DNA from: a virus
Taxonomy: Duplodnaviria > Caudoviricetes
DNA length: 40,302 nucleotides
Virus record (IMG/VR): IMGVR_UViG_3300030104_002640
Location: 1 to 40,302 of that record
Strand: one strand, 5' to 3'
The position numbers were made by a program, and so were the translations under genes. Below are positions 1,591 to 33,085 of the stretch, in pieces. The notes beneath the pieces are model-generated. The model saw only the letters and a program-made list of their open reading frames with translations, was not told where the DNA came from and did no database searches. Each line of letters starts with the position of its first letter. Position 1 is the stretch's first letter.

Positions 1591-2240
1591 AACTTTTAAC
1601 AACCTGGACATTTCTTTTTCTTATTATTTTTTTTTCGTTTAGTTTATTAGCTGACGATACTAACTCACAAACAAATACATCTGGCAGCAATACGAATATA
1701 ACTGGTGGATATACCACAACAAATAATAATACTTATCAATCTGGATCTTCTAACGACACAACAAACACAACAAATAATGATACTACTAATACCACAAACA
1801 ATAAGTCTACTATTCCTGTCAATTCTGCCAACGCACCAAGTTTCAGTTCAATGTCGCAAGATGTTTGTAGTATGGCTGTGTCTGGTTCTGTTTCCTCTAC
1901 TCTGGTGGGTGTATCTGGCGGTCGCCACTATTCTGATTTAAACTGTGAGAGAATAAAACTTGCTAAAGTATTAAAAGACTTTGGTATGTCCGTAGCTTCA
2001 GTTTCAATTCTCTGCCAGGATGCAAGAGTATTTTCTGCAATGGAAAGTGCTGGTACTCCATGTCCATTTCAAGGCAAGATTGGTAATGACGCAAAAAATC
2101 TTTGGAAAAAATATCCAGAATTAAGACCAGATTATGAACAATACATTAAAAGAGAAGAATACATGGCATCAATTCGCATTGAAACAATGTGCGAGGATTG
2201 TGATGCTAATGTGTTTGATCGCAACATCCACAACGAATAG
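1587..2240 (+). CDS. Secreted Cys-containing phage protein
   Basis: Signal peptide (MKLLTTWTFLFLIIFFSFSLLA-DD), T/N-rich linker, then CERIKLAK...LCQDARVF...AGTPCP. Confidence 0.8.
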   Translation: MKLLTTWTFLFLIIFFSFSLLADDTNSQTNTSGSNTNITGGYTTTNNNTYQSGSSNDTTNTTNNDTTNTTNNKSTIPVNSANAPSFSSMSQDVCSMAVSGSVSSTLVGVSGGRHYSDLNCERIKLAKVLKDFGMSVASVSILCQDARVFSAMESAGTPCPFQGKIGNDAKNLWKKYPELRPDYEQYIKREEYMASIRIETMCEDCDANVFDRNIHNE

Positions 2241-3783
2241 TGAAATTGTAACTACTGGTAATTTATTACCTAATGCCAATGATGGTGTTGATTGGGGATC
2301 ATCTCAAACTGACATGATTAATGATGGTGGTAGTGGGTATGTTTCTAATGGATCTACTGTCAATGGATTTACCATTACTTGTCCAACCTCCCAAGCAAAT
2401 TGTGGTTATAAATATAATGTTGGTGGAGATTTTGAAGTAACTGGTACAGCTACTGTAAGTGTCGATGATATTTCTTTGACCAGCAATTCTATTACTCAAT
2501 CAATGTTGGATAATGGAATTACTTTAAATAGTTATATTGATGTTGCTAATTGTGAAAGTGTCCAGGGTAATTGTGAAGCTAAATCTGGCAGCAACGATAG
2601 TCATACAACAACAGTAAAATTAAAAGATAGTAATGGAAATACTTTAAGTACAGTTTCACAAACTAGAACAGACCAAGTTGGTTTCCAAGGTAATTGCAAT
2701 GGTTATCCAGGAGTTAGTGGCGATGGTAGATCAGATGCTTGTGGTCAATATACTGATACAATTATTTATAATGATATAGGCAGTAATAAAGTTGATTGGT
2801 CTTGGAGTGGTACTGATACTAATTATACAAATCAATCTATTCAAGGTGTTAATTTATTAGGTGCATCTTTAAAGATGACATATGTTGATAGTAATTACAT
2901 TCCTGTTGATACTGATACACAAGAAACAATAGATGATATTGAAGAAAATATCCCAGACATTGAAGATGAATTTACTTTTGAAAATTATTTTATTTTTGAA
3001 GAAGAATTTTCCTGGGAAGATGACTTTACTTTTGAAGAAGAATTTTTTGAAGAAGAATTTGAAACAATATTTTTAGAAGAGTTTGAAGAGTTTGAAGAAT
3101 TTGAAGAAGCAACCTTTGAAGAATTAGAAATACCAGAAGAGTTTGAAAGTTTTGTTGAATCTTTTACCAATGATTTTTCCGAAGAAGAAATGGAAATATT
3201 GGAAGAAGAATTTGCAGAAGAATTTGAAGAATTTGTTGAAGAAATAATTGAAGAAGAACCAGAAGAAACAGAAGTAGTTGAAGCTGAAACAGAGGATGAA
3301 ATAATTGAAGAAGAACCTACTGAAGAAACAGAGGTAGCTTCTAATGAAGAAGAAGAAACAACAGAAATTGAAGAGGAAGAAAATGAACCCATTGCAGAAG
3401 AAGAAACCGAAACCGAAATATTAGAAGAAGAGTCTGATGTTGAGGTCGTTGATAATAAAGTTAATGATAAAATTAATATTAAAATTAATGATAAGATATC
3501 AGTTAATGTAAAAGAAATTAGTTTATTTGATGATGGTAATAAACTTGAAGTTTATAATGAAACAGATTTTTACCAACCAGAAACTATTTATACTAATGTT
3601 GATAATAGTTTTTTTGTCCAGGCAGATCTCTCATTATACAACAAGGGAATTTATATAAATATAGGTTTGGATAATTATATTAATACAGATCCTATTGGAG
3701 ATAGAGATAGAAAATTATACGAATTAAAGGTGGAAAAAATACAATTAATGATTCAACTACGAAAATTAAAGGAAATGTTATGA
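2203..3783 (+). CDS. Probably exported protein with Cys-containing beta domain and a very long acidic tract
   Basis: ORF track 2134..3783; GAGGA RBS favours ATG 2203; about 190 residues without Lys/Arg. Confidence 0.8.
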   Translation: MLMCLIATSTTNSEIVTTGNLLPNANDGVDWGSSQTDMINDGGSGYVSNGSTVNGFTITCPTSQANCGYKYNVGGDFEVTGTATVSVDDISLTSNSITQSMLDNGITLNSYIDVANCESVQGNCEAKSGSNDSHTTTVKLKDSNGNTLSTVSQTRTDQVGFQGNCNGYPGVSGDGRSDACGQYTDTIIYNDIGSNKVDWSWSGTDTNYTNQSIQGVNLLGASLKMTYVDSNYIPVDTDTQETIDDIEENIPDIEDEFTFENYFIFEEEFSWEDDFTFEEEFFEEEFETIFLEEFEEFEEFEEATFEELEIPEEFESFVESFTNDFSEEEMEILEEEFAEEFEEFVEEIIEEEPEETEVVEAETEDEIIEEEPTEETEVASNEEEETTEIEEEENEPIAEEETETEILEEESDVEVVDNKVNDKINIKINDKISVNVKEISLFDDGNKLEVYNETDFYQPETIYTNVDNSFFVQADLSLYNKGIYINIGLDNYINTDPIGDRDRKLYELKVEKIQLMIQLRKLKEML

Positions 3784-4277
3784 TACAAAAATTAACAAGT
3801 TATGCTTCTCTGTTAGGTGTGGTTGCTGCTATTGGTGGTGGCTTCATGGCTTGGGGAGAATTTAATAATAGAATTGCACAACTAGAAAATAAAGAATTTG
3901 TTATCAATGAAACTGTGGATCTTGCTCCTATTAATGACAAAATATCTACACTTGAAGTAGAAATATTAGATCGTATGTCTGCACTAGAAGATGAATGGAT
4001 GGCTAGAGATAATGATAGCCTGGATGATATTAGTACAGATATTTTAACTGCTAAATCAGACTCCATAAATAGGGATGAAAAACTTGCAGCTGCTGATAAA
4101 GAAATGATGAAAAAAATGTCAGAATTTTCATCAGAGGTTTTTAAAGAATTTGGAAAAATTAGAGATCTTATTAATGACTTAAATAAAAAGATAGCTGTTG
4201 CAGAAAAACAATCAGAATTAAATGGAATATTAATCGAGGAAATAAAAGAACAAGCTAGTAATCCTTTGGGGGGATAA
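3780..4277 (+). CDS. Membrane-anchored coiled-coil protein (spanin-like topology)
   Basis: N-terminal TM (YASLLGVVAAIGGGFMAW), long coiled coil, C-terminal NPLGG. Confidence 0.7.
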   Translation: MIQKLTSYASLLGVVAAIGGGFMAWGEFNNRIAQLENKEFVINETVDLAPINDKISTLEVEILDRMSALEDEWMARDNDSLDDISTDILTAKSDSINRDEKLAAADKEMMKKMSEFSSEVFKEFGKIRDLINDLNKKIAVAEKQSELNGILIEEIKEQASNPLGG

Positions 4278-5731: not shown

Positions 5732-7012
5732 TTATTGATGAATCAGAGATGCAACTGTATTAGCTTCTTTCCTTTTTTTATCAATGTTTGGCAATTTAAA
5801 GTTATAAATATCATTAACTGCTTGGGTTGTGTGTCCAACATCTTGTTTAGTATCCTGTCCAATAGATTCTCTGATAGTAATAACCATTTTTCTTAAACTA
5901 TGAGGATTAATATTTCCATCAATCCCAACTTTATTTCCAAATCTATTTAAAATTCTTTTTTGAAAATTACGACTATTAATAGGAGTACAACCACTTTGAC
6001 TTGGAAACAATAACCATCCCCATTTAAAATCTTCCTTATATCCATTACGAGAGTTTAATTCATCTAAATGAATATTTAAAATTTTTCTACATTCATCAGA
6101 TAATACCAAAGTTCTTTTCCCAGCTCTAGTTTTTGGAGTCATTTTTAATTCTCCAGTATTTGTATTAAGAGTTTTTGTAATTCTAAAAATACCTTTTTCT
6201 CTGTCATATTGATCTTGGGTTGCAGAAAAAATTTCCCCTGGTCTATTTCCTATTTCTGACCATAAGCTGGTCATTGCAAAATGTTGGTAATTATAATTTT
6301 TAATAGCCAGTAATAATTTACCAATTCTTTCCAGCATATCACTAAAACCACCTTGAACCATAACTGGATCTGGTTTTGTTTCTTTAAAATCAGCTTTTAT
6401 ACTATGATAATCTGAACGAACAACATTTTCAAAAGGATTATTAAGTAAATTTAATTCTTCCTTTCCTAATGCCCATTTAAACATTCTATTCATTAAATTA
6501 AATGAGTTACCATTATTTCTTACACCAATTTTACCATCTGGAGTTTTTGTTGATCCATCGTAGTGTGTAATTTTATTTAATTTATCACTTAACTCTGTAG
6601 CAAGGGGGGTTGTCATTTCGTTTATTTTATAGTTACGAAAATATTGTCCTTTAATTTTTATTCCATTCTCACGATCTCCAGAAGTTTTATTATCATCTCT
6701 AAAGTCATAAGAACCTAAAACAATATTAGCACAATATTGATAATCTATTTCACAAGATTTACTAATTGGTTTTGTTCTATTTAAACAATGTTCAAGATAA
6801 AGATCAAAAAGTTTATTAACTGTAATGTACTCTAAATTGTAAGTGCCATTATCAATTTGTTTTTTTATTTTTATTCTTTCTTCAATACATAAATCATAAT
6901 CAGAATTTGAAAATCTTTTAACATTTTTATTCTCATTATCATGTACTTGGAAAAACCATTTTGATCTTACTTTCCATTCTCTTATTTCAGTAATTTTATA
7001 TCGATTCTTCAT
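5732..7012 (-). CDS. int: Tyrosine recombinase/integrase
   Basis: Catalytic set: G-N-R-P-G-E (R), TPKT (K), PHSLRK (HxxR), VGHT (H), DIY (Y). Confidence 0.93.
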   Translation of the reverse strand: MKNRYKITEIREWKVRSKWFFQVHDNENKNVKRFSNSDYDLCIEERIKIKKQIDNGTYNLEYITVNKLFDLYLEHCLNRTKPISKSCEIDYQYCANIVLGSYDFRDDNKTSGDRENGIKIKGQYFRNYKINEMTTPLATELSDKLNKITHYDGSTKTPDGKIGVRNNGNSFNLMNRMFKWALGKEELNLLNNPFENVVRSDYHSIKADFKETKPDPVMVQGGFSDMLERIGKLLLAIKNYNYQHFAMTSLWSEIGNRPGEIFSATQDQYDREKGIFRITKTLNTNTGELKMTPKTRAGKRTLVLSDECRKILNIHLDELNSRNGYKEDFKWGWLLFPSQSGCTPINSRNFQKRILNRFGNKVGIDGNINPHSLRKMVITIRESIGQDTKQDVGHTTQAVNDIYNFKLPNIDKKRKEANTVASLIHQ

Positions 7013-7344: not shown

Positions 7345-7419
7345 TCCCAGGTAGCACAATGGTAGTGCATCTGACTGTTAATCAGAGGGTTACTGGTTCG
7401 AGTCCAGTCCTGGGAGCCA
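7345..7419 (+). tRNA. trnN: tRNA-Asn (GTT), complete with encoded CCA; probable attP core
   Basis: TCCCAGG/CCTGGGA acceptor stem, GCAC/GTGC D-stem, TCTGA-CT-GTT-AA-TCAGA anticodon arm, ACTGG-TTCGAGT-CCAGT T-arm, G discriminator, CCA. Confidence 0.96.
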
Positions 7420-10919: not shown

Positions 10920-11678
10920 TTAGATATATTCTCTTTTTATTTCTTCTCCTATAGGAACAAGACCTTCTATGACTAATTGATATATTTTCCTATATGTGCA
11001 ACTTCTTACTTCATAATCTTCAACAATAGCACCATCTTTACTAAAAGAATAATCCTTGATCCATTGAAATTTGCATTCTTTTTTATCAAAATTTGTAATT
11101 TCAAGAACTCTTCCATAATAAGTTTTAAAGTCTGTGCATTGTAATAAAACTCTTTTGTATAAAATATGGCTTATTGTTTCTTTGTTTTTACAAAGTTCCC
11201 CAGACCTTGTATCAAATAAATTATAATTTGTTACATTGCATGAATCTGGCATTTTTTTATTAACTTTTTGAAAAGCATTATAAAGTGAATTATCAGACTT
11301 AGGATGAATACAAGCTCTCATGGCTGGGTGCATTTCTTTTACATCAGTAAAATACAAAGCTTCTGGAGGTTGTTCATAATTTCTTGGTTGGTAGCCATTA
11401 AATCTAGTGTCCCAATACAAAACAATTTCAGCTCTTGGTATTTGAGTCGATAAAACATTTTTCATAGGAAGATTTATAATACGACAAATTTCTTGTATTT
11501 GATTCCATCTAGGATCTAATCTTCCATTTAAAATATCATAACAAGTTTGTGGAGATAGAGATGTATGGGTTTGTTTAGCTTCTCTATTTGCAGCAGCTAA
11601 ACTTTTTCCATTAAACCCAGCATCCTTAATTGCTTTTTTTAAAATTTCTAATCCAAAATCGTTGTCTAATGCTTCCAT
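10920..11678 (-). CDS. CI-like XRE-family repressor
   Basis: N-terminal HTH (LKKAIKDAGFNGKSLA...LSPQTCYDILNGRLDPRWNQIQEICRII); divergent from Cro; flanked by matching operators. Confidence 0.75.
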   Translation of the reverse strand: MEALDNDFGLEILKKAIKDAGFNGKSLAAANREAKQTHTSLSPQTCYDILNGRLDPRWNQIQEICRIINLPMKNVLSTQIPRAEIVLYWDTRFNGYQPRNYEQPPEALYFTDVKEMHPAMRACIHPKSDNSLYNAFQKVNKKMPDSCNVTNYNLFDTRSGELCKNKETISHILYKRVLLQCTDFKTYYGRVLEITNFDKKECKFQWIKDYSFSKDGAIVEDYEVRSCTYRKIYQLVIEGLVPIGEEIKREYI

Positions 11679-11812: not shown

Positions 11813-12025
11813 ATGTTTTTATCTGAATGGAAAACTCTGGAAAATATTAAAACTTTACCAGAATTGGCAAGGCGATTAGGGGTAGATAATACAACAAATC
11901 CAGCAAAACTTGTCCATAATTGGTTGAATGGCAAAGCAAAACCCAGCGGTAAAAACATGGAAAAAATTATTAGAGCCACACATGGCAAGGTTCAACCAAA
12001 TGATTTCTATTCCCAACAAAATTAA
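11813..12025 (+). CDS. cro: Cro-like repressor
   Basis: ELARRLGV...VHNWLNGKAKPS...IIRATHGKVQPNDFY. Confidence 0.82.
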   Translation: MFLSEWKTLENIKTLPELARRLGVDNTTNPAKLVHNWLNGKAKPSGKNMEKIIRATHGKVQPNDFYSQQN

Positions 12026-26397: not shown

Positions 26398-29007
26398 ATG
26401 GTACAAATTCCAGTCTTTACATCTCAATCTTCTCCTAAACTAACAGCACCAGTTACAAGGGGAGTGCCTAATCTTGTTGGAGCAGCAATCCTGCCTTATG
26501 AACAAATATCTCGTTTAGGTAATACAATTTTAGATGTTGGACAAAAAAAATATCAACAAGAATTAAATTTTGAAAATCAAAAATATGAAGCAAAACTGGA
26601 TCATGATTTAAACTTAAAAAAATTAGCTTTAGATTTTGAATCAGAAGAATATGCAATTCAAAAGCAACATGAGATTGATTTATTTAAAGAAAATGAATCG
26701 TATAAAACTAATCTTTTAAAATTATCAAATGAATTAAAAGGCGAGTTTGAAATTAATAAAATAAAGATCCAACGAGAAAATAAAGTTAAACAAACAATCG
26801 CTGACTCCTGGGAACAAATTTATACACTCTCTGATATTGCTACTCGAGATCCAGATACAGAAAATGCTTTAAGTAATTGGGATAATGGAATTAAAAATTT
26901 AAGAAATGAATTAACCAGAGGAATTAAAGATCTTTATACTAAACAATTAATTGAACAAGAATTAGATGAAAATATTGCATTAGAGAGAGCAAAAGTTTCT
27001 TCTAACATTAATAAAAATGTTTTAGATCAATCAGAAATTATTTTTCAAAATGAAGTTGAAACTTTAAAAAATAATATTATTCGTAACCACTCACACTTTG
27101 ATATTATTAGTTTAGAAAAATTAATTGGCGAAAACTCTATTATTCATCAAAGAGCTGCTAAAGGAGAATTAAAATTAAAAGGAGTACCAGTAACTTCAGA
27201 TATTTATATTGAAGCTATTAAAAAAGATATTTTTACTGTCATGGGCGAAAACATGGCAAAAGACCAACCAGAGAGATTTAAGTTTTATAATCGACAAGGA
27301 TTTTGGGATGATAAATTAACACCAGAACTTATACAATCTTATGAAGATAAAGCTGATACAGCCATTGCATCAAAACTATCTAATCAAATTTCTAATCTTA
27401 AAGCTTCTGCTACCATACTAACAACATCGATTGATAATTTTATAAATCCATCTAAACCAGAATTTTTTGGCGATACTAATCAATACTTTACTTACAAATT
27501 ACAAGCTGAAGATATGATTAATGATTTAGTGTCTGTTGGAGAAAATGAAAAAGCTCAAAAACTTGCAATTAAACTTGATGCTTTAAATAGTGCTTTTATT
27601 AATCATAATGAAATTAAAAGATTGCAAGGATTACCTTTGGATGAAGTACAAGATATTTGGAGTTCTTTTAATCAAGAAGTTAAAAACAAATCTGGAACTG
27701 CTACAGTTAATTATTTTGGTAAAGAATTACCATATAATATTGGAACAGATCTTCTTGGTCATATTGAAAAAACCATGAACTATATGGAAACAGAGATTGG
27801 TGCTGGTCGTGTCATTGAAATGGCAGAAAGTTTTGGCATGAATATTCCAACTATAAATTGGATGGAATCTGATGCAAATAAGTTTGCACAAGAAGTTGAA
27901 ATATATCAAGCTTCTATGGGTTTTTTAATGAATAAATATGGTTTACCAGAAATGCCATTTTTTAGAGAATCAGATTTAGCACAAATTAATGAAGTTTTTA
28001 AAAATGGAAGCAAACAAGATATTTTACAACTAGCAAGTAATGTTTCAAAAATGTCTGGTATTTATGCAAATGATGCCTTTACTGATTTATCGAATAACTC
28101 CCCAGCTATGGCACACCTAGGTAAATTAATGAATATGAACAAAGGTGGTATGACACAGGCTACCGAGCATATTGTTGATGGTTGGATTGCAATGCGAAAT
28201 GATGAAACTGCATCATTAGTTGGTAAAGTTGGATTAAATGAAATAGGTAATCCTTATCTGGAAATATCTGAAACTATGCTGGGCGATATTTTAACAAATA
28301 CACCAGAAACTTTTACGCAAATAACAGATTCTTCTAAATTGATATTTGCTAATATGATTGCAGAAAATTCTGAATTACGACAACTAATTATTGATGATAA
28401 TGCAAATAATAAAAAACTACAAGAAGCCTGGAGAATGTCTATTCAATATGCAGCTGGAATGGTTGTTGATGGATCTGGAGCAAAAGGTGGAATAGAAAAA
28501 TTTAATGGCAAACCAATTATTATTCCACAAGAAAAACCAAATGGAACTTTAGATCAATTTAATTTAGCTGGTCAATTTAAAAGTAATGATGCTCCATCAT
28601 TAGAATTATTATTAGAAAATCATTTAACTGATGAATTATTATATGATGCAACAGCAACATTAAGTGTTGATGCAAGTGGAAGATCTGAAGATGTATTTCT
28701 TAATGGAATGCCATCTGACTTTGATGCAGATGGAAAATTTGTTCATTATATAGATGCAAAAGAATTATTTGATAATTATGAAAAAATTTATTTAGAAACA
28801 AATGAGTATGGCGAATACTTTATAACTTTTGGCGATCCTGGAGATCCAGCACATGAATATTATAAAACAAAAGATGGTAAAAAAGTTACTTTAAATATTA
28901 ACCGCATTTTACCAGCATTAATTAAATCTTATAAAGCAAATCCATCTGACTCAATAGATCCAAGAGATACTAAATTAAATATACCAACATATACAATGAT
29001 AAAATGA
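26398..29007 (+). CDS. Internal virion/ejection protein (gp15-like)
   Basis: Large helical protein starting MVQIPVF; position in the ejection block. Confidence 0.68.
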   Translation: MVQIPVFTSQSSPKLTAPVTRGVPNLVGAAILPYEQISRLGNTILDVGQKKYQQELNFENQKYEAKLDHDLNLKKLALDFESEEYAIQKQHEIDLFKENESYKTNLLKLSNELKGEFEINKIKIQRENKVKQTIADSWEQIYTLSDIATRDPDTENALSNWDNGIKNLRNELTRGIKDLYTKQLIEQELDENIALERAKVSSNINKNVLDQSEIIFQNEVETLKNNIIRNHSHFDIISLEKLIGENSIIHQRAAKGELKLKGVPVTSDIYIEAIKKDIFTVMGENMAKDQPERFKFYNRQGFWDDKLTPELIQSYEDKADTAIASKLSNQISNLKASATILTTSIDNFINPSKPEFFGDTNQYFTYKLQAEDMINDLVSVGENEKAQKLAIKLDALNSAFINHNEIKRLQGLPLDEVQDIWSSFNQEVKNKSGTATVNYFGKELPYNIGTDLLGHIEKTMNYMETEIGAGRVIEMAESFGMNIPTINWMESDANKFAQEVEIYQASMGFLMNKYGLPEMPFFRESDLAQINEVFKNGSKQDILQLASNVSKMSGIYANDAFTDLSNNSPAMAHLGKLMNMNKGGMTQATEHIVDGWIAMRNDETASLVGKVGLNEIGNPYLEISETMLGDILTNTPETFTQITDSSKLIFANMIAENSELRQLIIDDNANNKKLQEAWRMSIQYAAGMVVDGSGAKGGIEKFNGKPIIIPQEKPNGTLDQFNLAGQFKSNDAPSLELLLENHLTDELLYDATATLSVDASGRSEDVFLNGMPSDFDADGKFVHYIDAKELFDNYEKIYLETNEYGEYFITFGDPGDPAHEYYKTKDGKKVTLNINRILPALIKSYKANPSDSIDPRDTKLNIPTYTMIK

Positions 29008-29531
29008 ACAAAATAGATTGGAATTTTATATCCGAATTAGAGGGTAAGGGAGCAAATACTGGTTATGTGCCAACAAAAAATTCTGGTGTTACAGTTGCAA
29101 CTGGATTTGATCTAAAAGAAAAAGATGAAGAATTTTTATTAAAAATTGGCATCTCCGAGCCAACTGTTGCAAAGCTTCAAAACTTTTGTGGACTCTCTGG
29201 AGCTGAAGCTTCAGCTGTCGCAAAAGATTTAGTATTAAGTGATAAGGAAGTTTTGGAAATAGATCTGTGTAGTAAAAAATATTATGCTACAAGAATAATG
29301 AACCAATATAATAGCAGAGATCCAAAAGAAACTTTTACAAATTTAACTAAAGGACAACAAACAGTTATTGCTTCTGTTGGTTTTCAGTATGGTAGTTTTT
29401 CACGAACTCCATCATTTATTAAACACGCAGTTAATTCTGATTGGGATTTAGTGGATCGAGAGCTGCGAAATTTTGGCGATGACTTTGGTACTCGAAGAAA
29501 TAGAGAGGCAGAATACTTATGGGTAGTGTAG
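29004..29531 (+). CDS. Pesticin C-terminal-like muramidase (lysozyme fold)
   Basis: IDWNFISELEG...GYVP..NSGVTVATGFDL...QTVIASVGFQYG...ELRNFGD.F.TRRNREA. Confidence 0.8.
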   Translation: MNKIDWNFISELEGKGANTGYVPTKNSGVTVATGFDLKEKDEEFLLKIGISEPTVAKLQNFCGLSGAEASAVAKDLVLSDKEVLEIDLCSKKYYATRIMNQYNSRDPKETFTNLTKGQQTVIASVGFQYGSFSRTPSFIKHAVNSDWDLVDRELRNFGDDFGTRRNREAEYLWVV

Positions 29532-32500
29532 ATATTCCTAAAGATAAAGGTTTAGAACTTCATATTACAAAAACCATTTATCCAGATTCAAAACGAGTAG
29601 GTACAACTCCTACAAAAACTCCTTCTGGTTTTTTTTCAGATCCAACAAATAGAAATTATGGAGGTGCTACAGCTCTTACTTCGCCTAAAACATTAGGAGA
29701 TAATTTTGAATCTTCTTTTAGAGATTTAATAGATTTTGGAAGATCAGTATCTTCATACCAGGGAAAAGTAGAAGATTGGGAATTAGTCCAAAATGAATTA
29801 GAAACAAAATTTGGAATAGAGATTCCTCATTGGGAAGATTACATTCCAGAAATTGATGATCAATACAGATGGTCAAGACCATTTTCTAATTTTGGTGTTG
29901 ATGGAGCTGGTGGAAATATGATGCCAGAAGCTCCATTTGAAGTTAAAAAAAAATATTTAGAAAATTTAATTTCAATAGAATTAGACAAACTTGGGCCAGA
30001 AGCTAAAAAAAATTTTAAGGGATATGATCATTATTTTGATTTAAGAAAAAAACAAGCAGCTGATACACAAGAACAAATGGCTCTTAATATGCAGTATGCT
30101 GATAGTGGCTGGGATAAATGGGGAGGAATGTTATCTGGTACAGCTGTTGCTTCATTTCATGATCCACTTATTCTTGGCACTCTTCCTTTATCCATGGTGT
30201 ATGGGTGGCAAGGAGGAATTGTTTATGCCACAATGCGAACAGCTGCAATCGAAGCAATTATTGCTGGTGGTGCAGAAACTATTATACAATCACAAGTAGT
30301 ACCTTACAGACAATCACTAGGACAAGATTATGACTGGTCGGATGCAGCAAAAATAATTGGAACTGTATCTGCAACAAGTGGTGTATTTGCTGGAACTCTT
30401 ACAGCTAGTGTTAAAGGTTCAGCACAATTATATAAAAATGCACAAATGGCTTTAGCCAAAACAAATCCAGACATACGCAATAAAATTATTGGTAAAGAAT
30501 TTTGGAAAGCAGTTAATGAAAGAGGTTTTATAGAATTAACTGATATTGATAAAGCTACTGGAAATATAAAATTATTAGATAAAGTTCCTCCAGATGTTGC
30601 TTGGGAAATAATAAATAAAAATATTTCTGCTTTAGGTAAAAAGGAAATGCTTTTATTATTTAGAACATTACCAGATTCAATACAATTACACGCACCTTAT
30701 CAAAGTGCTGCTAGAGAATTAGAAGAAAAAATTTTAGAAGATGTTGATAATCCATTATCCAAAAACATAGAGGGTAATGTTGAACACATGGAGAGAACTA
30801 ACTCAACTTTGGAAAGTGTATTAAAAAACGAAGAACCTAAAATTCCAGAACAACCTAACTCTCAAATAGTCCTGGATGAAAAAAGACCAGTAATGAATCA
30901 TGTTAAAATGAATCCAGATGATATTGAAGTAGATGCAAAAACTTTTCAATTTAAAACTGGAGGCGATAGTAAAGGAGTTTTAACAACATTAAAAGGTATT
31001 GATAAATGGGATCATAATGCAGCTGGTACTGTTATGGTATGGGAAAGAGCTGATGGAAAATTTTTTATTGCTGATGGTCATCAACGATTAGGACTAGCAA
31101 AAAGAATTAAATCAAAAGATCCAAAACAAGATGTTTATTTAATGACAGTTGTTAGACGAGAAGCTGATGGCTGGAATGCAGAAGATGTTATGGTTGAGGC
31201 TATGACAGTTAATATTGTTGCTGCAACTGCAAAAGCAGAAGATGTGGCAAGAGTATTTTTACGAATGGGAGAAACTCACACAGCTAATATACTTGCTGGA
31301 AGAATTAAACCACAACAAGCTCTTTATCAAAATTCTCTTGGTTTATATAGATTAGGAGATGAAGCATTTAGATATTGGCTTAAAGGCGGAATAAAAGATA
31401 ATATTGCAGCACAAGTTGGACATATTGTTGATGATCCAGAATTAGCAATAAATGCTTTAAAACTTTTAGAAAAAGCAAAACCAGCTAATATTAATGAAGC
31501 AAGATCAATAATTAGATCTTTTTTAGATGCTGGAATAATAGAAACCACACAAACCGATATGTTTGGTGCTAGAATCATGAAACAGTCATTGATTGTAGAA
31601 AGATCCAAAGTTTATAGTAGTGCTTTACGAGAGCTAAAAAAAGATAAAACAATCTTTAAAGCTCTTGTGGAAAACGATGAAGCTATTATAAAAAGTGGTA
31701 GAAATAAATTAGATACAAACTATAATGTAGAAAAGGCAGAACAATATGGCATCATCATACACAAAATCGAAAAACTCGCAAATCGCAAAGGGCGACTCTC
31801 AGACGAGCTTACTGCAGCAGCAAAACTCTGGAAGTCTGGAAGTAAGCGAAAAGCAGTTGAGTCTTTTAAAAAAGCTGTCTACGAGTCGATTGAACGAGGC
31901 GATCACGAGGGGATTACTCCAAGCGGAAGTGAACGCAGTATCTTTGCTTCGCAATCGGAAAGTCCAGCTCGACAAAAACCAAAAGAAAACATAATCACAG
32001 AAAAGTTAAAGGTACATGACGATCCTCATGATACCAATGTAGCTGTTAAAGAAGCTGATGATCAGTTAGATATACTTAAAGAGGAGATCAAATCTGGAGT
32101 TGCTTCTGGAGAACGCAAAACATCTGATACAACAAAACCTTTAGAAAGTACCCAGGATGAATTTTTCCAAACAACAACTGCCTCTCCACCATCAACTGTA
32201 TTAGCTAAAGCTAAAGGTACTCCATCAGCATCTCGAATACTTGATGATAATTCAATCGGAGAATTTAAAACTGTTTTAGGCATAAATTATAAAATACTAC
32301 AAATATCTGATAGTGTCGATAATTTATATAAATTAGCAAACAAAAGTATCAAAGATATTGAAGCCTCTATTACTAATATAGCGATAAAATTTAAAAATGC
32401 AAAAGTTATTACAGATATTAAGAAAAAATCAGAATTAAAGAGAAAACTAAAAAATAGGCAAAATGACTTTGGAAAAGACTATGATATACGATTTATTGGC

Positions 32501-33085
32501 GATATTGCTAGAGGTCGTATCGTTCTTGAAAATTTAGATGAAGTTGTTGATGGTTTAAATATCGAAGGATGGCTGCGACAAAATTATAAAATAATTTCAA
32601 AAAAAGATTATTTTACAACACCAAAAGAGAGTGGATATAGAGCTACTCATTATCAGCTTGTAACAGAAGATGGATTGGCATTTGAGTTACAAGTACATCA
32701 TAAAGATTTATTAAATATTTATGATAAATTAAGAGATCTTCCAAGCTCTGCATATAATAAATTTAAAAATAGAAAATTATCAAAAAAAGAAAAAGCTGAA
32801 AGAATTAAATTAGTTGCAAAAGAAAAGAAAATTTTTGATGATACTTGGAGTAAAATTCAAGTTGAACAAAAAGGGTTACCAGAACAACGAGCAGTCGATA
32901 TTGGTTTATTTGATGCAACTGCAAGAAACCAATTAGATTTAACCGATGAAGTTGTAATGGATATTAAAACTGGAGCTGATGGAGAATTAGTACCAGACAC
33001 AAAAACATTAAAACAAGTTCTTGATGATGTTGAAGAAGATGACAAGATCATTAATTTCTTAAAAGACTGTCCAGGAATATCATGA
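29519..33085 (+). CDS. Polyvalent internal virion protein with ParB-like and RelA/SpoT synthetase-like domains
   Basis: VWERADGKFFIADGHQR (ParB/Srx-like); IKKKSELKRKL, IGDIARGRIV, KDYFTTPKESGYRATH, FELQVH (RelA_SpoT-like). Confidence 0.8.
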   Translation: MGSVDIPKDKGLELHITKTIYPDSKRVGTTPTKTPSGFFSDPTNRNYGGATALTSPKTLGDNFESSFRDLIDFGRSVSSYQGKVEDWELVQNELETKFGIEIPHWEDYIPEIDDQYRWSRPFSNFGVDGAGGNMMPEAPFEVKKKYLENLISIELDKLGPEAKKNFKGYDHYFDLRKKQAADTQEQMALNMQYADSGWDKWGGMLSGTAVASFHDPLILGTLPLSMVYGWQGGIVYATMRTAAIEAIIAGGAETIIQSQVVPYRQSLGQDYDWSDAAKIIGTVSATSGVFAGTLTASVKGSAQLYKNAQMALAKTNPDIRNKIIGKEFWKAVNERGFIELTDIDKATGNIKLLDKVPPDVAWEIINKNISALGKKEMLLLFRTLPDSIQLHAPYQSAARELEEKILEDVDNPLSKNIEGNVEHMERTNSTLESVLKNEEPKIPEQPNSQIVLDEKRPVMNHVKMNPDDIEVDAKTFQFKTGGDSKGVLTTLKGIDKWDHNAAGTVMVWERADGKFFIADGHQRLGLAKRIKSKDPKQDVYLMTVVRREADGWNAEDVMVEAMTVNIVAATAKAEDVARVFLRMGETHTANILAGRIKPQQALYQNSLGLYRLGDEAFRYWLKGGIKDNIAAQVGHIVDDPELAINALKLLEKAKPANINEARSIIRSFLDAGIIETTQTDMFGARIMKQSLIVERSKVYSSALRELKKDKTIFKALVENDEAIIKSGRNKLDTNYNVEKAEQYGIIIHKIEKLANRKGRLSDELTAAAKLWKSGSKRKAVESFKKAVYESIERGDHEGITPSGSERSIFASQSESPARQKPKENIITEKLKVHDDPHDTNVAVKEADDQLDILKEEIKSGVASGERKTSDTTKPLESTQDEFFQTTTASPPSTVLAKAKGTPSASRILDDNSIGEFKTVLGINYKILQISDSVDNLYKLANKSIKDIEASITNIAIKFKNAKVITDIKKKSELKRKLKNRQNDFGKDYDIRFIGDIARGRIVLENLDEVVDGLNIEGWLRQNYKIISKKDYFTTPKESGYRATHYQLVTEDGLAFELQVHHKDLLNIYDKLRDLPSSAYNKFKNRKLSKKEKAERIKLVAKEKKIFDDTWSKIQVEQKGLPEQRAVDIGLFDATARNQLDLTDEVVMDIKTGADGELVPDTKTLKQVLDDVEEDDKIINFLKDCPGIS
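31746..31994 (+). CDS. Nested +1-frame 82-aa ORF inside the polyvalent protein
   Basis: Host-frame GC3 rises to about 30/82 codons versus about 5/80 at 31322-31561; no TTA codons; TATAAT at 31721-31726 and AAGG upstream of the ATG. Confidence 0.6.
   Translation: MASSYTKSKNSQIAKGDSQTSLLQQQNSGSLEVSEKQLSLLKKLSTSRLNEAITRGLLQAEVNAVSLLRNRKVQLDKNQKKT
32062..32283 (-). CDS. Nested antisense 73-aa ORF, candidate antitoxin/immunity protein
   Basis: Globular-looking IRDADGVPLALANTVDGGEAVVVWKNSSW; the host frame here is an S/T/P-rich linker; TCGACA-N17-TATTTT lies 7 nt before the ATG. Confidence 0.55.
   Translation of the reverse strand: MPKTVLNSPIELSSSIRDADGVPLALANTVDGGEAVVVWKNSSWVLSKGFVVSDVLRSPEATPDLISSLSISN
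32291..32319 (-). promoter_or_regulatory. Sigma70-like promoter for a leaderless antisense transcript
   Basis: -35 TCGACA (32319-32314), 17-nt spacer, -10 TATTTT (32296-32291); TATAAT also at 32291-32286. Confidence 0.5.

Follow-up and report, generated by a model that had tools for sequence, protein, structure and literature searches.

Small proteins that act on RelA/SpoT-fold synthetases are known from several systems. According to the accessible text of the relevant papers, IapK and Tis1 target the acceptor site (PMC12226406, PMC11782079), and ATfaRel2 blocks the donor side through a YXXY motif; an acceptor Tyr of FaRel2 is described in the same source (PMC11782079). Apk enzymes carry the signatures RYT (syn2), GxN (syn3) and YH (syn4) in the accessible part of PMC12226406. 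Among phages, polyvalent proteins that contain DdrB-like ParB and RelA/SpoT domains are thought to be delivered at invasion, and an alarmone-like host response has been proposed for them (Iyer 2017; PMC5512222, accessible text). How a phage with a toxin domain in its virion spares the cell that is building or carrying it is a question that the locus described here addresses.

The locus lies in a DNA of 40,302 bases (the window, meaning the whole stretch analysed), a complete-looking virus record with terminase, portal-type connector, capsid and tail genes. Its capsid protein is 64–67% identical to those of HTVC010P-type pelagiphages; judged by its genes the phage is HTVC010P-related, integrase-bearing and marine, and its cellular host is probably a low-GC marine alphaproteobacterium. 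The features that bear on the analysis are as follows.

5732..7012, minus strand: tyrosine integrase, which gives the context of temperate potential
7345–7419: tRNA-Asn
29004..29531, plus strand: pesticin-type lysozyme, a separate gene in the window
29519..33085, plus strand: host gene for a multidomain (polyvalent-type) protein of 1188 aa, in the internal-virion/ejection module
30920..31870, plus strand: ParB-like domain, a DGHQR motif and then helices, with a phrog_10691 match at residues 468–784
31746..31994, plus strand: ORF-B, a second nested gene in the +1 frame, 82 aa, which travels with the ParB-like domain
32062..32283, minus strand: ORF-A, a nested antisense gene of 73 aa with an ATG start, likely an immunity protein
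32288..32872, plus strand: RelA/SpoT (small alarmone synthetase fold) domain, residues about 924–1118, 195 aa
32291..32319, minus strand: putative promoter-like site TCGACA-N17-TATTTT, 7 nt before the ORF-A ATG

A divergent gene pair elsewhere in the window (10920–11678, minus strand, and 11813–12025, plus strand) resembles by eye a repressor and cro switch, consistent with a temperate phage; its larger gene has no family match. A 549-aa protein at 2134–3783 (plus strand) contains a long, Glu-rich, very acidic tract and has no match in Pfam or PHROG.

Upstream of the host gene are an internal-virion gene and the pesticin lysozyme, and a virion structural gene follows it. The lysozyme is fused to the N-terminus of the 1188-aa-type protein in 9 of 27 homologs, for example L001, and from these fusions and the gene's position among virion genes we infer that the protein is packaged and delivered with the DNA. 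At least two conflict domains, ParB-like and RelA, are present in the one chain and vary between orthologs; the ParB label of the region at 30920..31870 is based on its DGHQR motif. No MuF domain was matched in the protein in Pfam or PHROGs. The RelA part is absent from isolated phage records, five of which match over the ParB region only.

Within the RelA/SpoT domain, PF04607 matches residues 967–1061 of the 1188-aa protein above its cut-off. The domain model (pLDDT 93.9) matches small alarmone synthetases (SAS) in Foldseek with an E of 1e-9; the matches include SAS1/RelP, CapRel (7ZTB), an exported SAS and Tas1 (6OX6, E 6e-7), and the top ones are housekeeping SAS enzymes (5DED, 6EWZ). K968, D995, Y1040, H1044, E1056 and Q1058 do not vary across the 37 alignment rows, all of which keep the catalytic Asp (Syn2), Tyr/His (Syn3) and Glu-x-Gln (Syn4). 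In the model the fold is clearly that of a small alarmone synthetase, and the catalytic residues are retained. The canonical consensus has an Arg in Syn1 and Arg-Thr in Syn4, and the window departs from it, reading DIKKKSELKRK and ELQVHH at these places. Asp or Asn occupies the position of the Syn1 Arg and Syn4 is ELQVHH in the near clade; remote clades have RIK in Syn1 and ELQIRL in Syn4. The domain's signatures RGR, ATH and VH have their Arg and His as in Apk and the rest as in RSH, and its Arg in Syn2 and His in Syn3 fit the (p)ppGpp type by the accessible text of PMC12226406. Owing to the non-canonical Syn1 and Syn4 and to this mixture of Apk and (p)ppGpp signatures, the activity, substrate and product of the domain are uncertain; we slightly favor conversion of ATP to (p)ppApp.

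A preliminary description of this DNA had picked out a 73-aa minus-strand frame from 32283 to 32062, and this frame, with the peptides quoted from it, is present exactly as claimed. It covers host residues 848–922 in the wobble-aligned antisense frame of the ORF 29519..33085, and the plus-frame peptide over it is, as had been said, S/T/P-rich and ends in VLGI. ORF-A had been placed immediately beside a RelA/SpoT domain. The two do adjoin, but the domain is part of the 1188-aa protein and not a separate gene, so that ORF-A lies entirely inside that gene and its promoter-like site falls in the first codons of the domain. The site has precisely the layout given for it (TCGACA at 32319–32314, 17 nt, TATTTT at 32296–32291, 7 nt, ATG), and the comparable leaderless layout upstream of the integrase can be read there by eye. 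No Shine-Dalgarno motif was seen upstream of ORF-A in the window. The term leaderless suits the near clade, in which mostly 7 nt separate the -10 element from the start, but not the other clades, where the best-scoring site is 9–12 nt away.

Given the host peptide, the promoter match in the window is not beyond chance (p 0.25 by synonymous resampling), and four promoter-like sites were found against 2.5 ± 1.5 in shuffles. When scored with generally known weights, a sigma-70-like site before the ORF-A start is among the best 5% of antisense positions at 27 of 31 loci (4 of 31 fall short), yet it beats synonymous resampling (p ≤ 0.05) in only 11 of the 31, the window not among them; in remote clades TG-n-TATAAT is frequent before the start. 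We regard the promoter match as weak in the window alone and, in the better form that it takes across homologs, as suggestive. Three metatranscriptomes hold 5–10% of the sequence words as unstranded contigs, none over ORF-A, and are uninformative on expression. Expression from the prophage may be one option, and is based on the integrase, the antisense orientation and the promoter-like motif.

The length of ORF-A is by itself no proof of a gene, and the warning to this effect in the preliminary description was right: 2953 of 24776 70-codon windows (12%) are stop-free in this frame outside ORF-A. The register, however, limits how a stop can arise on the minus strand: it takes a host Tyr codon preceded by T or C, or a host His/Gln codon preceded by T. 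Across 31 dereplicated loci, ORF-A overlaps 69 host His/Gln codons. Of these, 62 have a C before them, which yields the conserved Trp residues, and 0 have a T, which would yield a stop; of the 1592 such codons outside ORF-A, 157 are preceded by C and 519 by T. Host Tyr codons number 2 of 2403 inside and 774 of 29325 outside. Because most of the 31 loci had been found with ORF-A, the count was redone on 10 loci not found through it (the window and 9 found via the host protein), and here C precedes His/Gln inside ORF-A in 21 of 21 cases and the number of Tyr codons is 0. Among 16 near loci, differences that are synonymous in the host and change the antisense protein stand to those of the reverse kind as 0:261 in ORF-A; the upstream region gives 98:17 and the RelA domain 518:108. 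The bias runs the same way in two remote clades (1:10 versus 130:16, and 30:97 versus 238:136), though these polarity counts are not independent, since locus pairs share ancestry.

A start codon is found 5–10 codons before the conserved Pro of ORF-A in 49 of 49 loci (46 ATG, 3 GTG). Minus-frame stops in homologs had been named as the mark of a spurious frame, and there is none in any of the 49. Resampling of codons leaves the frame open in 3% of trials, and open with an ATG and both Trp in 0.04%. A profile made from four ORF-A copies retrieved 41 called proteins, most with the same start residue and a few weak matches being unrelated repeats; some of the gene-called homologs have new N- and C-terminal extensions. 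By these sequence comparisons ORF-A is a conserved protein-coding gene, with purifying selection on the antisense frame beyond that on the host frame. The absence of stop-making codon pairs and the flip of substitution polarity to the minus frame thus give good support to the original claim of a real antisense gene.

ORF-A is present in 10 of 79 loci fetched by the host protein, which are those with this RelA subfamily, and in 0 of the 69 others; a close relative, P0028, has neither the RelA domain nor the linker. In 29 of 30 loci with remote ORF-A homologs, the opposite strand encodes a RelA domain immediately past the ORF-A start (the remaining one is cut by the contig end), and 4 further remote loci agree with this adjacency. 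Nine hosts among the 30 remote loci have no ParB match. Pairwise identities between window and L003 are 98% in ParB, 58% in ORF-A and 44% in RelA, and between L094 and L006 they are 100, 51 and 43; between window and L001 the values are 62%, 84% and 81%. Divergence of ORF-A has a partial r of 0.69 with that of RelA versus 0.32 with that of ParB in 26 loci, one of which (L128) was included by motif and has no ParB profile match. These comparisons demonstrate, at the level of sequence, that ORF-A is linked to a single RelA/SpoT subfamily and that the two are exchanged together, as a cassette. One further locus, L090, was discarded as a chance match. Also rejected was the notion that ORF-A accompanies RelA in all hosts; it is missing from 31 loci with other RelA-like subfamilies and is therefore no general partner of such domains.

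The ORF-A model (pLDDT 87.7) is a beta-meander followed by two short helices. ORF-A belongs to no family in Pfam, PHROGs, NCBIfam or PADLOC and has no match in the ESM Atlas, among PDB sequences (best E 0.07) or among solved folds (best Z 3.3, rmsd 4.7 over 54 residues), the last of which does not in itself make the fold new. The predicted complex of the domain with ORF-A scores 0.83 (runs 0.83, 0.83 and 0.86), and the best of 3 controls 0.01; the runs agree in at least 94% of contacts, with a partner pLDDT of at least 90. In calibration, 116 of 157 solved pairs reach the mark used, as do 2 of the 215 mismatched ones, which is only roughly valid for alignments that, like ours, are self-made. 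The 37 loci and their order are identical in both alignments, which may raise the score, and a pass by memory is possible, although no like complex was found. The predicted interface includes D995, the loop and Tyr1040/His1044 of Syn3, and residues 1078–1092 of the domain, and on ORF-A R17, G33–V36 and V51–S53; by RSH enzymology we take this face of the domain to be the acceptor side. ORF-A is thus predicted to bind the domain over its nucleotide-acceptor side and to cover the active site. The proposal that it is a cognate antitoxin is well supported by its co-occurrence and co-exchange with the domain and by the predicted complex, and it becomes a candidate inhibitor family for RelA/SpoT-fold enzymes that matches none of the solved folds.

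What follows the ParB-like domain varies between loci, making this a polymorphic slot. Sorted by motif, 68 other loci have two other RelA-like subfamilies in 31 (23 match the RelA profile), a zeta-toxin-like kinase (PF06414) in 23, and an ART-like domain, an empty slot or a cut in 14. Loci with the other RelA-like subfamilies have an antisense ORF just downstream of the domain in 30 of 31 cases (one is cut), with a Shine-Dalgarno-like motif before its start in 15 of 15 checked; nested antisense ORFs of this kind lie at L057:5403–5600, L031:5376–5573, L077:5598–5843 and L050:5011–5256, all on the minus strand. A +1-frame ORF is found downstream in 21 of the 23 zeta-like loci (two are cut). In L024, L035, L058, L079 and L080 the cargo is a zeta-toxin-like P-loop kinase; the nested ORF after it, about 62 aa in the +1 frame, is a candidate antitoxin. 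The genomes with other cargoes are GC-richer, so open frames are commoner in them. The ART-like cargo at L019:4618–5574 (a weak PF18760 match) has no obvious nested partner. Homology of ORF-A to the downstream nested ORFs of the other RelA subfamilies was considered and rejected, since profile comparisons are not significant (P 0.03, 0.14 and 0.11; probability below 2%) despite a common DG..W..DVL look.

ORF-B, the other nested gene of the window, has an open frame in each of the 81 distinct ParB-bearing hosts, where the background is 7.8%, and is a candidate immunity protein for the ParB-like domain. It looks helical, its ATG is at a nearly constant place across hosts, and a promoter-like site lies at 31699–31726.

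Copies of ORF-A also occur outside the phage gene. Among 19 metagenome loci 15 are nested and 4 free-standing, the latter all at contig ends; the L108 copy contains a stop, and L110 looks chimeric and is not counted as evidence. L105/L109 and L108 are situated among cellular genes (ABC transporter, methyltransferase, ArsR), and L105 is 93% identical over 178 nt to the phage copy L104. A 25–40 nt repeat (L108:1323–1362, 2313–2352, 3145–3184 and 3763–3802; L105:26–50 and 371–396; also L141–L156) adjoins the L105/L109 and L108 copies and recurs between genes, and it is present in 16 loci of uncultured Alphaproteobacteria. Its placement between unrelated accessory genes of uncultured marine Alphaproteobacteria resembles a gene-cassette array, with the free ORF-A copy as one cassette. 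Eleven proteins join an ORF-A domain to an ORF-B domain (E < 2e-5), two domains which in the phage face each other; several of the fusions P0032, P0034, P0035, P0037, P0039, P0040 and P0079 have membrane segments. ORF-A was not found in GTDB genomes, nor around five repeat-bearing Alphaproteobacteria (0 in 5, 116 and 187 genomes, overlapping sets of which none is 90% complete). These copies hint that immunity genes have been captured by cellular hosts.

ORF-A is a real, conserved nested antisense gene, and we consider it likely that its product, which is predicted to bind the RelA/SpoT domain, serves as the cognate immunity protein of that domain. The domain itself is best read as a putative virion-borne alarmone-synthetase toxin. 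The 1188-aa protein would be packaged and ejected with the DNA, and its RelA/SpoT domain would pyrophosphorylate a nucleotide and so arrest or rewire a naive host. The antidote ORF-A, expressed from an antisense promoter of its own, would disarm the domain wherever the genome is already present, which could be a lysogen hit by a sibling phage, a newly infected cell after DNA entry, or a virion-making cell. The antisense promoter would be free while the late operon is silent, which would fit the lysogen or the first minutes of infection. Nesting in the linker would keep toxin and antidote together when the slot is exchanged and would leave the ejected protein as one chain.

If ORF-A were merely the unexpressed shadow of a conserved linker, its open frame would be one of the 12% that arise by chance, its conservation would be carried over from the host frame by the register, and the unremarkable promoter of the window would need no explanation. 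Stop avoidance, flipped polarity, kept starts, a confident fold, extended called homologs, the predicted complex and the rarity of such frames on resampling argue together against this, and we find it scarcely credible. It is harder to dismiss the idea that ORF-A does bind the domain but that the domain is a mild signaling enzyme, used to tune host metabolism or the choice between lysis and lysogeny through (p)ppGpp, with ORF-A acting as a timing switch or folding partner and not as a life-saving antidote. The housekeeping SAS enzymes among the top fold matches (5DED, 6EWZ) would agree with this, as would the Syn2 Arg and Syn3 His of (p)ppGpp type (PMC12226406, accessible text) and the alarmone-like host response of Iyer 2017 (PMC5512222, accessible text). 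We nevertheless think it unlikely, given that the slot elsewhere holds zeta-toxin-like or ART-like cargoes, most of them with a nested ORF of their own, or nothing, as is typical of polymorphic toxins, and that free-standing ORF-A copies lie among cellular genes.

ORF-A could also be a counter-defense protein directed at a host synthetase or toxSAS, or have some other job, its link to the phage domain being a case of hitch-hiking. Homologs do occur without the domain, some fused to membrane segments, and the test of the complex could be passed by close cousins of the true partner. But no complete host gene was seen to carry ORF-A without this RelA subfamily, and ORF-A diverges and swaps in step with the phage domain, so we rate this explanation as improbable.

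The reading of ORF-A as an immunity protein can be extended to a broader proposal, for and against which we see the case as evenly balanced: that abundant marine podoviruses have a polymorphic toxin slot in an ejected protein, each module of which hides an overlapping immunity gene, in a kin-recognition or addiction system from which hosts have captured antidotes. If this is true, the cargoes of the slot are several alarmone-synthetase subfamilies, zeta-like kinases and ART, and the particle poisons any cell, the antidote coming only from a matching genome that is arriving or resident; kin recognition or addiction would then be encoded by the genome, and host-captured ORF-A and ORF-B domains would have been fused into one chromosomal shield. 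The apparent answer to the question of how the phage spares its own cell would be small partner genes in overlapping frames, which gene callers drop. A simple search rule follows, to read the opposite strand of S/T/P-rich "linkers" beside phage toxin domains. The ORF-A/domain pair is small (73 and 195 aa), and naturally swapped alleles of it exist.

Among described systems, MuF Apk2 with IapK/BcTis1 and Aph1 resembles the window in having a temperate phage, a virion-module carrier and a RelA/SpoT-fold domain (PMC12226406, PMC10083569, accessible text), and its small cognate protein IapK acts at the acceptor site, as is predicted for ORF-A (PMC12226406, accessible text). The window differs in that its carrier is not MuF, its RelA/SpoT domain is internal, with a conserved C-terminal cap after it, it shows the Apk signatures in part only, no hydrolase was found among the 20 window proteins scanned, and ORF-A is nested antisense and upstream of the domain, whereas the Apk2 immunity gene is downstream in the same operon. 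Lacking MuF and a downstream partner, the window system is thus not a member of the Apk2 type. The phage polyvalent proteins of Iyer 2017 have the same combination of lysozyme (here in relatives), ParB-like and RelA/SpoT domains; the main text of that paper (PMC5512222), supplements aside, describes no nested partner genes and does not mention overlap or opposite strands in the part accessible. Among the openly available papers listed in our literature searches, none was seen to describe immunity genes nested within virion or polyvalent proteins of phages.

The toxSAS pair FaRel2/ATfaRel2 and CapRel likewise have a compact alpha/beta partner of a synthetase-fold domain (PMC11782079, accessible text), and CapRel (7ZTB) is a fold match of the window domain. 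Unlike ATfaRel2, ORF-A contains no Tyr and hence no YXXY motif, which sets it apart from the ATfaRel2 type; its strands form a meander without a helix between beta2 and beta3, and it is predicted at the acceptor side and not at the ATP donor side. It is also not in a bicistronic operon, as toxSAS modules are. The pZFD fold is not among the matches listed in the ORF-A fold searches, and its order of elements differs. The type VI secretion effector Tas1 with Tis1 (6OX6) shares the synthetase fold and has its immunity protein at the acceptor site; delivery in our case would be by the phage particle, and no sequence or fold link from Tis1 to ORF-A is among the matches listed in the PDB sequence and fold searches. 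The best reading of these comparisons is that ORF-A works like IapK or Tis1, but as a new family hidden in the toxin's own gene.
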